This document shows positions 26,271 through 32,728 of a stretch of DNA of 64,000 bases, piece after piece; the first letter of the stretch is position 1; each line of letters begins with the position of its first letter. Source of the DNA: a virus. Its lineage: Duplodnaviria; Caudoviricetes. The translations under genes were made by a program, and so were the position numbers. Under the pieces are notes generated by a model. The model was not told where the DNA came from and did no database searches. It worked only from the letters and a program-made list of their open reading frames with translations. The stretch lies in IMG/VR virus record IMGVR_UViG_3300032007_000014. The stretch is one strand, 5' to 3'.

Positions 26271-26402
26271 TACTGGTTCTCCTTACATTATAAGGGTATT
26301 ATAGTGGTTTAAACTAGTCATAGATATGGTCGGAAGTGCCTTGTTGAAGGGAGAACAGAGTACCAAAGAGGTACTCTGTTCTCATGAGAATTTGGAACTT
26401 TA

Positions 26403-26430
26403 TCAACATAACTATTCATAGTTATGTTGA
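26403..26430. promoter_or_regulatory. Palindrome copy 1 TCAACATAACTAT-tc-ATAGTTATGTTGA
   Basis: Perfect 13-bp arms, 37 nt upstream of ATG 26468. Confidence 0.6.
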
Positions 26431-26467
26431 AAATTCACAACCAAGAATAACAAGGAGATATCACAAC

Positions 26468-27124
26468 ATGGCATTCCCAACTAAAGTAATTCCATTCTCG
26501 GAAGCATGTGTCACCTGGTTAAATCAGACATATGCACCAAAAATACATGAACATGATCAGTATATGCTGAGAACTGAGAACGCTGGAGGACACGAACCAG
26601 ATTGGGATCATACACTTGTGTTAGAAGGTCCAACTACTTGGAATGCTTATCACAAGACAAATAAAGTATATAAAATCAATGCACCTGGATTCATATTTGT
26701 GACCTTCACAACAAGTCAATTGGATAATGATGACTATCTTGTTTTACTTGCAAGCAAGGAAGATTATCTATATGCTGATGGTACTTATACAGCATGTCAA
26801 AATCATGCTGTAGAATATATGTCCACCACTAGTAATGGTTACGGTCACTCAGCTCAATTTGTACATATCACACCAGGTACATCAACTTACATGAGAATCG
26901 CAGTTGATTCTCCTCCAAATGGAAGACACACTCTATTGTTCATTCCAGATAAAGGATTGACAACACTGCAGTTGAGTGGATGTATTACTTCTATAGATAC
27001 ATCCACATATGACGGAAATAGGGTATTCAGTCGTTTTGATTATAATCCTAGATCAACGTTAAATCAAATCAAAACAAATCTTTTATCGATATTTGCGGGT
27101 GATTGGAGAACAAATTTTGCATGA
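26468..27124 (+). CDS. Putative tail-associated protein, paralog A
   Basis: Start MAFPTKV with SD AAGGAG; HEHDQY motif; similar to the 28710 gene. Confidence 0.55.
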   Translation: MAFPTKVIPFSEACVTWLNQTYAPKIHEHDQYMLRTENAGGHEPDWDHTLVLEGPTTWNAYHKTNKVYKINAPGFIFVTFTTSQLDNDDYLVLLASKEDYLYADGTYTACQNHAVEYMSTTSNGYGHSAQFVHITPGTSTYMRIAVDSPPNGRHTLLFIPDKGLTTLQLSGCITSIDTSTYDGNRVFSRFDYNPRSTLNQIKTNLLSIFAGDWRTNFA

Positions 27125-27179
27125 CTTGTGATAACAACCTCATGGGAGTCGTGCGCTCCCATGAGGTAAAATTCACCAA

Positions 27180-27206
27180 TCAACATTGCTATGATAGCAA
27201 TGTTGA
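27180..27206. promoter_or_regulatory. Palindrome copy 2 TCAACATTGCTAT-g-ATAGCAATGTTGA
   Basis: Perfect 13-bp arms, 23 nt upstream of ATG 27230. Confidence 0.6.
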
Positions 27207-27229
27207 ACATAATTGAAAGGGTTGTTATC

Positions 27230-27655
27230 ATGGCAACGTCAGTATCTATGTTGGAAACAAAGTTGAGTCGAGCAACTACAAGATGGATCCTGAACAAATT
27301 TACTTACAATGGAAGCAATGATAATGGATGTTTCAGAATATGTCTTGATGGCTATACTGAACAATGGGGAACTGGAACATCTAACAATGTCACATTCCCT
27401 AAACCATTTCGAGATAATGAACATGTGCATGTTGATGTAACCAGTATATCAAATGACAATTTGATATTTTCAGTACATCATGTTACGAGTACTGGATTCC
27501 AAGTTGATGCAATTAAGATACTTAATTCAATTCCAGTCTCTCTTGCCAATGTTGAAAGTTTTGCATTCATGTGGAAAGCAATTGGATATACGTCAATAGA
27601 CAATCCTGATGGAAATGTATTAGAATCACAAGAAGATACGAGAGGTCCACAATAG
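27230..27655 (+). CDS. Stand-alone tail-fibre C-terminal (gp53/H-lectin-like) domain protein
   Basis: EQWG...VTFPKPF...TSTGF...WKAIGY pattern typical of fibre tip domains. Confidence 0.6.
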   Translation: MATSVSMLETKLSRATTRWILNKFTYNGSNDNGCFRICLDGYTEQWGTGTSNNVTFPKPFRDNEHVHVDVTSISNDNLIFSVHHVTSTGFQVDAIKILNSIPVSLANVESFAFMWKAIGYTSIDNPDGNVLESQEDTRGPQ

Positions 27656-27671
27656 GACCTCTCGTATCTTC
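27632..27671. terminator. Bidirectional hairpin between convergent genes
   Basis: GAAGATACGAGAGGTCC...GGACCTCTCGTATCTTC, 17-bp stem. Confidence 0.65.
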
Positions 27672-27684
27672 AATCTATCTCTAA

Positions 27685-28710
27685 TCAATATGCTACATTT
27701 GCAGATGCAGTTGGTTGAACAAAAGTTGTCGTCAAGTTGTATGACGCACTTATACGAGCTGAGTTCACTATCCAAGCTATACCATCAGGAGGATCAGCTT
27801 GACCAGTTCCTCTTGGGTCACTCCAATAATAAACAGAGTGATCGCTGTACAAACATATTCTCCAAATTCCATCATACTTGCACATAATGTAATTGGTTCC
27901 ATTGTAGAACCACATTCGGTTGTCTCCAGTTGCTACTGGATCCATCATGTGCAATCGATAACCATTTGACCAATTTCCTGATGTCAAGTATGTTATCTTT
28001 GGTCGAAGTATGTTAGTTTCTTTCAACGTCGTGCCATTGAAATTGTCAGTCCAATCACCTCCAAATATACTACTTCCAAGAGATAAGAGTGATCCAAGTC
28101 CACTGCTGTTGTGAGATGAAATCTGATTCTCACCTCTAGCAACTCTGGTGAAATACGAAGCTTTCGGAATACTTGTTGACAATCCTTTCATCGGGACGAA
28201 CATTAGTTTCATATATGTTGATGGAGTTGACGCATCACATACTCTGAGATATGTTGATGTTCCTGGTAGGATAGGGAATGCGCAATTTGTATACCATTCT
28301 CCATCTACAGTACCATACAGTTTACATCTCTTGTTTGCATAGTGAGGTCTCGTGTAACTTCCAAAATTACTAGCTTGTTGTTGATGACGTACCAAGTATC
28401 CTGGGTGACTTGCAACCAGATACCACCAGTCTATCTCGTCAGCGTATCCATCATAGGTACTTTCAGTCTATAGATATCCAGGAACATTTATCTTGTAAAT
28501 AGTTCCTGGATTGGCCGCCCAGCTTCCATCAGTTGTTTCCATGAACACCATCCTCGTGAAATCAGGCATGCTTGCTGATGGATCAAACAGACCAGTGATG
28601 TCACTCGCTTTCAAGTATTCCGAATGACTGTGATTCTTCAATGCATATGTCTGGTTTAGCCAGTTCTTGCATGCTTGTGAAAGAGGAATAACTTTTGTTG
28701 GAAAAGACAT
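27685..28710 (-). pseudogene. Tail-associated paralog C interrupted by one in-frame TAG at 28468-28470 (pseudogene or readthrough)
   Basis: ORFs 28468-28710 and 27685-28395 share a frame (...PGYL*TESTYDGYADEIDWWYLVASHPGYLVRHQ...); both halves resemble paralog A (YKINxPG; PGTSTYxR; SIFxGDWxxNF). Confidence 0.7.
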
Positions 28711-28747
28711 GATGTGTCAACTCCTGTTTTCATAGTTTTCTGTAAAT

Positions 28748-28775
28748 TCAACATTACTATGAATAGTAATGTTGA
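28748..28775. promoter_or_regulatory. Palindrome copy 3 TCAACATTACTAT-ga-ATAGTAATGTTGA
   Basis: Perfect 13-bp arms, 37 nt upstream of ATG 28710 on the minus strand. Confidence 0.6.
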
Positions 28776-28843
28776 CACATCTGTAAAATAAAATCAAGGA
28801 TCTACCTTGCCTAATAAGCAAGGTAGATCCTGTAGAATATGTT

Positions 28844-31005: not shown

Positions 31006-32088
31006 TTATTTCTTCTCACCTTCTCCTTCGCCTTCGGCAGGCTTCGCGGGAGCTTTGGCGGCCTTGACGCAGACATAGGCACTGTAAGCCAGCTTGGTCA
31101 AGCAGGTGTTGCCGAATTTGACCATCTTGTCAGCCTGTGCAGCAACCGCCTTCTTGTTCTTGGCGACAGTCTGCTTCTTCTCATCATCGCCAGCGGCTTT
31201 CGCGGACTTGATGGCTTCAGCATATGCCTTGTCGATGGCGTGGGCCAGTTTCTTCAGGTTCTGATCTGCCAGAGCGCCGAGAGCGATCTTGCAAAGAGCC
31301 TGAGCTTTGCCGGCGTCGTAGCCGAGTTCTGCGAAAGTCTTTTCCTCTTCTTTGAAGGGGAACTCGCCGACTTCCACACCGGCGTCGGTGCGCTTGATGC
31401 CGAGAGCTTCGAGGGTCTTGAACTGACTGTCGATGGACTTGAAGAGAGCTTCACCGACATTACCCAGCTCACCTTTTTCGGCAGCGCCGATGGCCGCGGG
31501 CATGGTGGACTGAACGTTGGCCAGAATTGCAGAGATGGCTTTGAATGCATCGCCGCACTGTTTGGCTTGCGCATAGGTCAGAGCTGTGACCTTCTGGTCT
31601 TTCAGTTCTGCGCCATTCAGCGCGCCCTGATTGGCCTCGATGTACTGTTTGTATTTTTCGTTCTTGTCGAGGATGCGTTTGAACCAATCGACGATCGCCT
31701 TCCAGAGTTTCTCAACACCGGCGATGAACGCATTCCATGCATCACGAGCAAGACCTTCGAGACCGGCGACATACTGACCCTTGAGGGAATCCAGTTCGGA
31801 GACGGACTTGCTCTCGAGGGAAGCAATGCTCAGGGCTTCGAAACCCAGGGCGGTGGACAGATCGCCATTGTGGTCGAAGATTGCCATGTTCGCAGGAACA
31901 CAACCGAACTTCTTGATTGATTCGCAAGCAGATGCGATGTTGTCCATCACAGTCTCTGCTTCCGCAGTGCACGCTTCCGCGGCATACAGGTTCTCAACCG
32001 CCACGTTGTACGCGAGCAGCGCGTCAACGAGATTGGCGTCACCGGCGACATCAGAGATAACCTGCTTCGTTTGTGACTTGAATTTCAT
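31006..32088 (-). CDS. Abundant internal head protein, phiKZ-like paralog family
   Basis: Start MKFKSQ (SD GGAG); AVE/ACE/GFE/SLE/GLE sites then AWNAFIAGVEKLWKAIVDWFKRI helix; GC-rich codons; the ORF-track extension to 32550 is unlikely. Confidence 0.72.
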   Translation of the reverse strand: MKFKSQTKQVISDVAGDANLVDALLAYNVAVENLYAAEACTAEAETVMDNIASACESIKKFGCVPANMAIFDHNGDLSTALGFEALSIASLESKSVSELDSLKGQYVAGLEGLARDAWNAFIAGVEKLWKAIVDWFKRILDKNEKYKQYIEANQGALNGAELKDQKVTALTYAQAKQCGDAFKAISAILANVQSTMPAAIGAAEKGELGNVGEALFKSIDSQFKTLEALGIKRTDAGVEVGEFPFKEEEKTFAELGYDAGKAQALCKIALGALADQNLKKLAHAIDKAYAEAIKSAKAAGDDEKKQTVAKNKKAVAAQADKMVKFGNTCLTKLAYSAYVCVKAAKAPAKPAEGEGEGEKK

Positions 32089-32377
32089 CTGATTGTTCTC
32101 CATTGAAATTGTTTTCACTGTACAGCTTCCAAATTCTTCCGAGAACACACATCTTGACACACGATGTAGATATCTGTTGATCCACTGAAGATCGTATTGA
32201 ATTTGGCTATAATATAGGTGTTTGGTACATTCTCGTATAGTCCATGATGCGAGAATTTGGTTGCATTCATTATCGACTGTCCTTCGATTTTGATTCGTCC
32301 ATGTATGAAACTCCTGTTGTTTTTGGGTTGCCCTGTAGGAGGATCGTAATGATCCTCCTACAGGGGTATTATGTGCT

Positions 32378-32728
32378 TTATTTCTTCTTCTTGGGTTTGT
32401 TGTCATTCCAGTAATCAATTGGGAATACACATTGTACCATGGTTGAAAAGAATCCATCAACCAGAATGAATATCCCAATAAAGAACAGGAATTGATGACT
32501 GTTTGGTTCACCGATTTGGTATTCCAAACGACAGAAGATGTATCCCACAAGCAACAACCTTATCAAGTTAGTTGTGTGGTAACTGATCTTGTGTCCATTT
32601 GGATATTGCTTGATGATCGAGAACCATCTCAGAAAAGTTTCGGGAAAAAACATCGTAGTATCCAGAGAATCAGATACAGTGCTACAACTCCAATTGGAAG
32701 GAGACATCCGATAAACAGACATCCACAT
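32378..32728 (-). CDS. Small membrane protein (true start probably internal)
   Basis: Two hydrophobic segments and a basic tail. Confidence 0.35.
   Translation of the reverse strand: MWMSVYRMSPSNWSCSTVSDSLDTTMFFPETFLRWFSIIKQYPNGHKISYHTTNLIRLLLVGYIFCRLEYQIGEPNSHQFLFFIGIFILVDGFFSTMVQCVFPIDYWNDNKPKKKK

Follow-up and report, generated by a model that had tools for sequence, protein, structure and literature searches.

Three perfect palindromes, each placed ahead of a fibre-accessory gene, were found in the window, a stretch of 64,000 nucleotides from the genome (238 kb, 90%-complete) of an uncultured phiKZ-like giant rumen phage. They belong to a family of 12 copies, which on balance are probably promoter elements read by a putative non-virion multisubunit RNA polymerase that this phage encodes, as judged from their sequence and position. 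The G of a central TATG would be the likely transcription start and the centre of the palindrome would set the direction, since TATG is present there on one strand only. The units follow the order hairpin, palindrome, leader of 23–37 nt with a ribosome site, and gene, so that each fibre-accessory gene would constitute an insulated expression cassette with its own promoter.

The palindromes are located at positions 26403–26430 (TCAACATAACTAT-TC-ATAGTTATGTTGA, palindrome 1), 27180–27206 (TCAACATTGCTAT-G-ATAGCAATGTTGA, palindrome 2) and 28748–28775 (TCAACATTACTAT-GA-ATAGTAATGTTGA, palindrome 3), as an earlier, sequence-only reading of the window had reported. They are 27–28 bases long with perfect mirror symmetry; exactly these three matched the pattern in the window, none was obtained in 100 dinucleotide-preserving shuffles used as chance control, and a looser arm-only pattern recovered the same three sites. 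The copies vary at arm positions 8–9 and at the mirror positions, with compensatory differences that leave all three perfect, and the distances to the ATG codons at 26468, 27230 and 28710 (minus strand) are 37, 23 and 37 nt, both in agreement with that reading. As that reading stated, the motif does not recur in the window; in the rest of the genome, two further exact copies and seven looser relatives were found.

The part common to the 12 perfect palindromes of the genome is just RCTAT-N1-2-ATAGY; CTAT-N1-2-ATAG occurs 13 times in the 238 kb, 12 of them inside palindromes of the family. Outside this core all the pairs (124/124) are Watson–Crick and none is G–T, the palindrome symmetry being kept at the DNA level. 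Each half reads AACA-W-T-R-CTAT, with one central position common to both halves. The half-site was never found alone and exists solely as a perfect dyad, for which reason the symmetry itself may be the recognised feature, in keeping with a dimeric protein. Without exception, G/C or GA/TC is found at the centre, in the 12 genome copies and in the relatives fetched, and consequently exactly one strand reads CTATG(A), with one central TATG in each of the 12 palindromes and in all those relatives. On the TATG strand the consensus is AACA-N6-TG, with A, A, C and A at −11 to −8 in 11, 9, 10 and 8 of the 12 copies and T-G in all of them; both elements are exact in the three window sites. The five TCAACAT palindromes read CAT-N3-TATG. 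A gene start follows each of the 12 sites and a hairpin directly precedes most of them; five of the sites stand before paralogous MAFPTK genes. Several members of the family may share descent with duplicated gene starts, and the consensus would therefore represent fewer than 12 independent sites.

The promoter reading draws on two characterized systems. The late promoter of phiKZ, a kind of phage that transcribes without the host polymerase, is TATG with the start at G, and all four bases are needed (PMC4666361); its P119L promoter contains ATTGCTATG (PMC12809450), a 9-mer that is also present in palindrome 2. The late motif of phage AR9 is AACA-6N-T-A/G (PMC5312081). The rumen phage genome encodes a phiKZ_IP protein above the Pfam cut-off and two RNA polymerase beta-like (Rpb2_6) genes, one of them above the cut-off and with the early-promoter motif before it; the beta-prime domain PF00623 was not detected in the genome. 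This early-promoter motif, TATATTAC, is present in 28 copies. In addition, CAT-N2-TATG was found 21 times in the non-coding 10% of the genome versus 8 times in coding DNA, 25–48 nt upstream of start codons and with a sharp spike against other spacings, and it is well supported as a separate promoter class of the phage.

Palindrome 1 has its central TATG on the minus strand, where transcription might start at 26417 in the direction of the fibre gene P0001; on the plus strand, the GTTATG arm and the TC centre form a second CAT-N3-TATG, with a candidate start at 26426 towards P0003. The centre of this palindrome is TC in 12 of 12 related contigs. Palindromes 2 and 3 both carry their central TATG on the plus strand. 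The candidate start of palindrome 2 is at 27193, 37 nt ahead of the ATG of P0004; that of palindrome 3, at 28761, leads away from P0005 to a gene for 102 aa (ATG 28925). Genome-wide, the central TATG is directed towards the downstream gene at three of the six sites flanked by same-direction genes, and other TATG or TATAG motifs are present between several palindromes and their genes.

Several observations count against promoter function: of the window sites, site 2 alone has its TATG directed towards the neighbouring accessory gene; the genome-wide proportion is three of six; the half-site never stands alone; and AACA-N4-TATG is not a general promoter of the phage. As a general late promoter, the AR9-type motif was ruled out, its non-coding copies being confined to the five TCAACAT palindromes. 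A host sigma-70 promoter was likewise rejected as a general explanation: TGCTATGAT at site 2 resembles an extended −10 element, which the other sites do not have, only site 2 reaches a 9/12 match, and such matches are not enriched versus shuffles.

The terminator-like hairpins that had been claimed beside the palindromes (26351–26383, about 27137–27167 and 28797–28831) all fold strongly as DNA, with z-scores from −8.5 to −10.4, and a T-rich tail was found only at 28797–28831 among these three, on the minus strand only, which is the sense direction of P0005. Hairpin 1 (26351–26383) has 14-bp arms and a 5-nt loop, and both of its strands lack a T-run. Located between P0001 and P0003, which are divergent, it probably insulates one from the other. 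Hairpin 2 (27137–27167) follows the stop codon of P0003 and, in strains without the middle gene, is the sole hairpin between the two convergent outer genes. A further hairpin at 27632–27671, with 17-bp arms, closes the P0004 cassette and has a T-rich tail on the minus strand, after the stop codon of P0005. The hairpin at 28797–28831 (minus strand) is terminator-like and, in the reading direction of P0005, comes before palindrome 3.

P0003 (26468–27124, plus strand) encodes a MAFPTK-family fibre-accessory protein of 218 aa, with a conserved N-terminus of about 33 residues that carries an HxH..Y motif and a body that is variable between strains. Its model (pLDDT 63.5) gave weak matches to C1q/TNF-like jelly-rolls (E about 2e-3, TM 0.28/0.42), and an Atlas look-up returned viral clusters only, all below 0.9. 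P0005 (27685–28710, minus strand; 341 codons) is a paralog of P0003 in the same family with an extra C-terminal domain; as had been proposed, these convergent outer genes are inverted paralogs (BLASTP E 1e-26, 34% identity across the whole of P0003). In the window strain P0005 is broken by an in-frame TAG at 28468–28470 (TGG to TAG, W81 to stop), and it is intact in all the related strains fetched. Stop-codon recoding was ruled out, because the relatives have TGG at this codon. The product of the middle gene, P0004 (27230–27655, plus strand; 141 aa), is possibly the stand-alone fibre-tip domain that had been suggested, on weak matches to Pfam Gp53-like_C (22.2 bits versus a cut-off of 24.9) and PDB 4mtm (E 0.23); its model (pLDDT 47) was too poor for a structure search. 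No match was obtained for P0005 among the sequences of solved structures, for any of the five proteins in PHROGs, or for the region among GenBank phages by blastn, and protein-seeded scans of IMG/VR with P0004, P0003 and P0001 returned no relatives. The exact palindrome pattern was also absent from IMG/VR; two 15-mer cores gave more than 100 matches each, nearly all due to chance, and among the matches listed four had arms of at least 10 bp, none of them a clear relative.

Comparison of strains delimited the mobile units. The P0004 cassette (27180–27679, plus strand), which comprises palindrome, 5′ leader, gene and hairpin, is a 500-bp insertion whose first base is base 1 of palindrome 2 and which ends past its own hairpin; it is present in the window and in contigs L007 and L011, and missing from L012, L013, L015–L017 and L021. 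The palindrome moves with its gene as one unit. In the outer paralogs the gene bodies are swapped between strains, and the other exchange breakpoints, at 26566 and 28643, coincide with the end of a shared leader and N-terminal module; most breakpoints are located 67–98 nt inside the genes, where the shared N-terminal codons end. A hairpin and a palindrome precede each gene in the relative L010, as well as the three window genes. Sites 1 and 3 are conserved in relatives, being identical at 28 of 28 positions in phages in which the neighbouring DNA is only 65–72% identical. The centre of site 3 changes from GA to TC in strain L012, the one case in nine contigs, which represent at least five distinct strains. 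Cassettes and gene bodies would be exchanged between strains by ordinary homologous recombination, for which the conserved palindrome, leader, N-terminal codons and hairpins would serve as substrates, and strand switching inside the palindrome, as the DNA is replicated or repaired, would best account both for the perfect arms and for the occasional turning of the centre.

Of the alternatives in the sequence-only reading, the regulon agrees best with the data: insulated fibre-accessory genes would share a common regulatory site (hairpin before, gene start after, site and gene as one unit, and the 28/28 conservation); as to the nature of this site, the sequence would favour a promoter over the shared operator or 5′ RNA hairpin suggested there. 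Of these two, operators are the stronger competitor, if still an unlikely one: the palindromes would be operators or structure-specific sites for a phage-encoded dimeric regulator of some of the late genes, whose transcription would begin at another point close by and not at the centre. A half-site restricted to perfect dyads, the conservation of the full 28 bp within diverged surroundings, the seemingly arbitrary orientation of the centre relative to the gene, and the TATG or TATAG motifs between several palindromes and their genes are all consistent with this possibility. However, the gap between the halves is of 1 nt or 2 nt at apparently matching sites of two species (genome 22892 versus L008/L009), which a rigid dimer would tolerate poorly, a regulator would need no constant G/C or GA/TC centre, and no candidate regulator was found.

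A tentative extension of the promoter reading, to which we give comparably low weight, is that the palindromes are direction switches that need no recombinase. Because the two arms are identical, turning the one or two central bases, via strand switching or cruciform processing, would place the sole TATG on the other strand and redirect the phage polymerase between neighbouring genes, for example at site 3 from the 102-aa gene to the P0005-type fibre accessory gene, as the centre of L012 would predict. Cruciform extrusion might possibly also display TATG unpaired in the loop, for a polymerase that reads the motif on a separated strand.

It is improbable that the palindromes act as transcribed RNA hairpins of 13 bp, in 5′ leaders or intergenic positions, for processing, stability or translation control. 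The short distance of 23–37 nt to the start codon at each site and the covariation of the arms would fit such a role, as would read-through from upstream, which is possible at hairpins 1 and 2 because they have no T-run. Against it, G–U is found in none of the 124 variable pairs and the symmetry therefore points to DNA, the loop is not oriented alike in all copies and is turned round in one strain, and no credible family was matched in Rfam. The P0004 cassette begins at its palindrome and thus brings no promoter upstream of it, and sites 1 and 3 receive no transcript from flanking genes, as both lie between divergent genes.

Functionless, self-maintaining hairpin repeats, spread together with duplicated gene starts, are a very unlikely explanation. 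The five copies before MAFPTK genes could be copies by descent, and strand switching alone can preserve the arms and flip the centres, but such repeats would not be expected to retain 28/28 identity in phages with about 30% divergence in the adjoining DNA, a constrained centre and a position strictly upstream of a gene start, nor would one be carried by the unrelated gene P0004.

The least probable alternative, in which a site-specific recombinase would act at the palindromes to invert or exchange fibre-gene cassettes, would agree with the palindrome that forms one cassette boundary, with the different order and orientation of cassettes in a distant relative and with three independent assemblies of one strain that terminate at site 3, but serine or tyrosine recombinases, and with them classical recombination sites, are made unlikely by the absence of PF00239 (Resolvase) and PF00589 (Phage_integrase) from the 90%-complete genome, with positive controls; the three-gene segment is inverted in none of L007 and L011–L021, only the 2-nt centre of site 3 being turned, in L012; most breakpoints are inside genes, as homologous recombination predicts; and a core of 1–2 nt leaves too little room for the staggered cuts made by known recombinase families. 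The invertible system considered in the sequence-only reading is accordingly not borne out, and its idea of cassette exchange survives in a weaker form, in that gene bodies and whole cassettes are exchanged beside the sites and one centre is inverted in one strain.

Under the favoured reading, as promoters, the palindromes would extend the knowledge of jumbo-phage non-virion polymerases, for which promoter determinants beyond TATG are an open question (PMC4666361, PMC12809450), and would represent a natural promoter class in which phiKZ and AR9 motifs are combined in a long and strongly conserved upstream half. They would also make it possible to test directly whether the symmetry of the DNA, or extrusion of a hairpin, assists such a polymerase in opening it. 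A giant phage would thereby pack receptor-binding accessories as small promoter–gene–terminator units in which the N-terminal adaptor is constant and the bodies can be swapped, a design that bears on the evolution of host range in rumen phages and on modular building with phage parts. If frequent, the flipped centre, so far seen once at one site, would be a new and very small genetic switch, by which a phage population could mix virions with different fibre accessories.

With the late promoters of phiKZ (PMC4666361, PMC12809450), the sites share a phiKZ-like phage that probably has its own multisubunit polymerases, the TATG core, the G as presumed start, the P119L 9-mer in site 2 and, in the window, a position before genes of putative virion type. 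Those promoters are not described as palindromes, a word never used in the polymerase papers found, whereas here the promoter half is mirrored and direction would consequently depend on the one or two central bases. The late promoters of AR9 (PMC5312081) have AACA at −11 to −8 and T/G at −1/+1 in the same register; AR9, in contrast, has uracil DNA and reads the template strand (PMC5312081), and in the rumen phage non-coding AACA-N4-TATG is limited to palindromes and is not a general late motif.

In the PeSL elements of T4-type phages (PMC2839356, PMC4122927), variable genes are likewise set apart by small conserved composites of a stem-loop and a promoter, at which closely related strains differ by insertions, deletions and replacements, as in the P0004 indel (27180–27679). 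PeSLs differ in using host sigma-70 early promoters and in flanking mostly orphan early genes (PMC2839356, PMC4122927), whereas here the promoter part would be a perfect palindrome of jumbo-phage type, the cargo consists of fibre-accessory genes, and many breakpoints fall outside the regulatory element, in shared N-terminal codons.

The invertible systems Mu G/Gin and P1 C/Cin and the shufflons resemble the present arrangement in having alternative C-terminal fibre domains after a constant N-terminus and in the inverted paralogs. Unlike them, the rumen phage has no invertase, no 26-bp sites of gix/cix type and no inverted segment among strains, and its paralogs each come with a separate start and a separate promoter-like site. 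The virion-polymerase promoters of phage N4 are also similar, in that a phage polymerase uses a promoter whose inverted repeat can extrude to form a hairpin. The N4 enzyme is single-subunit and its promoter hairpins have a stem of 5–7 bp upstream of the start, whereas the palindromes described here have arms of 13–17 bp and are centred on the presumed start.

The pattern TCAACAT-W-R-CTAT-N1-2-ATAG-Y-W-ATGTTGA was located by pattern search in exactly three copies in the 64-kb window, at 26403-26430, 27180-27206 and 28748-28775 (sites 1, 2 and 3), and no match was obtained in any of 100 shuffles of the window sequence. The window corresponds to positions 82220-146219 of an IMG/VR virus record 238,219 bp long. 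Differences between copies are confined to arm positions 8-9 and their mirror positions and, since the changes are paired across the two arms, all three copies are perfect palindromes, as the sequence-only reading had described. Its account of the surrounding layout was also confirmed: the palindromes lie 37, 23 and 37 nt ahead of the start codons of P0003 (26468-27124, plus strand, 218 aa), P0004 (27230-27655, plus strand, 141 aa) and P0005 (28710-27685, minus strand, 341 codons), respectively, and each is preceded, in the sense direction of its gene, by a strong hairpin (hairpin 1, 26351-26383; hairpin 2, about 27137-27167; hairpin 4, 28797-28831). The fourth hairpin found, hairpin 3 in map order (27632-27671), is situated 3' of P0004. 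P0003 and P0005 are indeed inverted paralogs, along the entire length of P0003 (E 1e-26).

The assignment of P0003-P0005 as tail accessories is indirect. The cassette neighbours two fibre-like proteins, each longer than 800 aa, P0002 and P0001 (21215-26270), rich in H-x-H...Y repeats (e.g. HNHD..YSKLGH), which appear similar to the metal-binding HxH repeats in fibre tips of the T4 type. These repeats are also present at 5255-6979 of L010, a related phage, and their copy number is very different among relatives; the MAFPTK N-terminus of the P0003/P0005 family has one, and a relative has about eight. The predicted model of P0003 weakly resembles C1q/TNF-type jelly rolls. P0004, previously considered a fibre-tip domain, does match such a domain, but below the Pfam cut-off.

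Seventeen related contigs were collected by metagenome scan and exact-protein look-ups, 13 of them covering the locus; at about 85-98% identity, L007 and L011-L021 represent strains, and L010 comes from a phage with about 65-72% identity. Contig L006 showed only an imperfect look-alike palindrome and no similarity to this genome. The P0004 gene is present in the window, L007 and L011, and absent from L012, L013, L015-L017 and L021, where hairpin 2 runs directly into the P0005 gene end; the middle gene is an insertion. The extra DNA (27180-27679) extends from the first base of palindrome 2 to just past hairpin 3, and therefore constitutes a complete palindrome-leader-gene-hairpin unit, in which gene and palindrome travel together. 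Both outer genes are mosaic: identity to the window breaks at 26566 (98 nt into P0003) and 28643 (67 nt into P0005). Relative to the window copy, P0003 alleles show 83-86%, 40% or 34% identity, P0005 alleles are of a 341-aa and a 354-aa type with a mutual identity of only about 36%, and both sets are freely combined among strains. Palindrome, leader and about 25-33 N-terminal codons form a module about 75% identical between P0003 and P0005. L010 has three same-direction hairpin-palindrome-gene units downstream of its fibre gene, one with a P0005-like gene in the orientation opposite to that of the window. Site 3 in both L010 and L005, and site 1 in L010, are identical at 28 of 28 positions amid DNA of 65-72% identity, which argues for selection on the palindrome sequence itself.

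Codon 81 of P0005 (28468-28470, minus strand) is TAG in the window. A recoded stop was rejected and the change is a plain nonsense mutation, because every relative reads TGG (W81, Trp); P0005 is a fresh pseudogene of a fibre-accessory paralog in this strain.

The sequence-only reading had not seen the motif elsewhere in the window, and this holds; in the whole genome it extends beyond the cassette. The exact pattern has five copies, two of them outside the window (genome 22892 and 45452), and a scan for perfect palindromes yielded seven further members, which have in common only the inner core RCTAT-N1-2-ATAGY and whose outer arms, 13-17 bp long, are different in sequence. CTAT-N1-2-ATAG occurs 13 times in the genome, 12 of them inside such a palindrome, and all 12 palindromes are upstream of a gene start. 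Centres of 1 nt are always G/C and those of 2 nt always GA/TC. The palindrome at genome 38488-38522 lies, by eye, within a longer imperfect inverted repeat (genome 38440-38570; about 40 nt on either side, containing runs of A8/T9) that is situated between a pair of divergent genes.

With somewhat better than even confidence, and from sequence comparison, the palindromes are read as promoters of the phiKZ/AR9 late type, used by the phage's own polymerase. Internal head proteins of phiKZ are matched, above the Pfam cut-off, by the product of a nearby gene (31006-32550, minus strand), and two RNA polymerase beta-like genes were detected in the genome. In phages of the phiKZ type, late genes are transcribed by a non-virion polymerase of the phage itself, whose phiKZ promoter is TATG, with the start at G and all four bases required (PMC4666361). 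As the centre is constrained to G/C or GA/TC, each palindrome contains exactly one central TATG. The consensus on that strand, A(-11) A(-10) C(-9) A(-8) W T R C T A T G(+1) A, with the upstream A, A, C and A in 11, 9, 10 and 8 of 12 copies, shows the same motif in the same register as the AR9 late promoter, AACA-(6N)-T-A/G (PMC5312081), which is matched exactly at all three window sites. The 9-mer ATTGCTATG is common to site 2 and P119L, a strong phiKZ late promoter (PMC12809450). Elsewhere, (C)CAT-N2-TATG has 21 copies in non-coding DNA (10% of the genome) versus 8 in coding DNA, 25-48 nt ahead of start codons and often after a T-rich terminator (e.g. genome 137609 and 145476, at window 55390 and 63257, and genome 170004, minus strand); no comparable non-coding enrichment was found genome-wide for spacings N0, N1, N4 and N5. 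It is probably the main TATG-type promoter of the phage, and the TCAACAT palindromes carry CAT-N3-TATG, one base longer. The promoter reading is thus favoured by the single central TATG, the AR9 and P119L matches, the TATG promoters elsewhere, the upstream position and the movement with the gene.

Other promoter-like motifs were also recorded. TATAG, frequently in the form of the 6-bp palindrome CTATAG, is over-represented ahead of genes (54 non-coding and 103 coding copies genome-wide; 15 of 34 upstream copies 30-49 nt ahead of the start codon; e.g. genome 24081, 49501, 179497, 213964 and 218294) and may be a second promoter class, perhaps of middle genes. TTCA-N17-TATATTAC, with 28 genome copies, most of them some tens of nt ahead of a gene start and all but one on the minus strand (on that strand, e.g., genome 45381; window 44982 and 49407), resembles a phiKZ-like early promoter, of the kind used by a virion polymerase; one copy is just left of the hairpin adjoining the palindrome at genome 45452. 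The unrelated viral contig IMGVR_UViG_3300020057_000035 (111,848 bp; listed as L049, L058 and L092) has seven copies of a repeat, six of which contain the complete GCTATCATAGCAT core; read on the opposite strand, the repeat is a TTGACA-type hexamer, 17 nt and TG-C-TATGAT, a sigma-70-type extended -10 promoter containing the same GCTATGATAGC core by chance.

Direction is the main difficulty of the promoter reading. A start at the central G would direct transcription from site 2 towards P0004 with a 37-nt leader, and from site 1 leftward in the direction of the large fibre gene P0001, with the start at 26417. The central TATG of palindrome 3 points away from the broken P0005, and would drive transcription rightward from 28761, towards a 102-aa gene; ahead of P0005 itself there is just a weaker ACTATGA, 21 nt from the ATG. 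The GTTATG arm variant of site 1 combines with the TC centre into another complete CAT-N3-TATG, this one on the plus strand, with a candidate start at 26426, 42 nt ahead of P0003, so this site may be truly two-directional; the same double arrangement is present at genome 45452 and in L010. A mini-palindrome at 26310-26335 (CCATA-TC-TATGG), 49 nt ahead of the P0001 start codon, carries CAT-N3-TATG on both strands and a TC/GA centre as in the large palindromes. At the six sites genome-wide that are flanked by genes of one orientation, the central TATG is directed at the downstream gene in three and away from it in three, whereas an ordinary promoter would always face its gene. Possibly the sites switch, the reading protein is indifferent to the centre, or transcription starts elsewhere.

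The plus-strand centre of site 3 is GA in eight contigs (the window and L015-L021) and TC in L012. The surrounding 150 nt are otherwise almost the same, and between L012 and the window the sole differences there are the two bases of the centre and two in the loop of hairpin 4. L021 has GA; its P0005 allele is of the 354-aa class, as in L012 (95% identity). The centre is TC in 12 of 12 contigs covering site 1 and G in three of three at site 2. Centre inversion occurs but is rare in these contigs, and a working switch is unlikely. Three independent assemblies of one strain stop at or inside palindrome 3 (L018, end 3938; L019, end 3829; L020, end 2049), perhaps because of a mixture of states or of an assembly difficulty at the palindrome; L016 and L017 read through it.

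Reading of the palindromes by a dimeric regulator is kept alive, because no half-site occurs without its mirror image and symmetry therefore matters; a rigid dimer, however, fits poorly with a centre of 1 or 2 nt, the length of which differs between apparently matching sites of two species. RNA hairpins are less likely: over 12 distinct palindromes, including three further distinct sequences from relatives, all 124 non-core base pairs are Watson-Crick and none G-T (G-U in RNA), with several pair types at each position; moreover, the centre flips, an Rfam search gave no match and the P0004 cassette has nothing upstream of its own palindrome. Classical site-specific recombination, suggested earlier as an invertible or cassette-exchange system, is unlikely, as the absence of a recombinase from the window extends to the 238-kb, 90%-complete genome for Resolvase and Phage_integrase domains, the segment is inverted in none of the strains compared, and most breakpoints fall inside the common coding module, which is what homologous recombination would predict. 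Strand switching in the palindrome during replication or repair would copy one arm from the other and could invert the centre; we infer that this is the simplest joint explanation of the perfect arms and the flip.

Full-text searches gave no account of palindromic promoters used by polymerases of jumbo phages, and the word "palindromic" is absent from the polymerase papers listed by one of these searches. The closest known kin of the sites themselves are the phiKZ and AR9 late promoters, and those of their genome-shaping role are the T4-type PeSL cassettes (PMC4122927).
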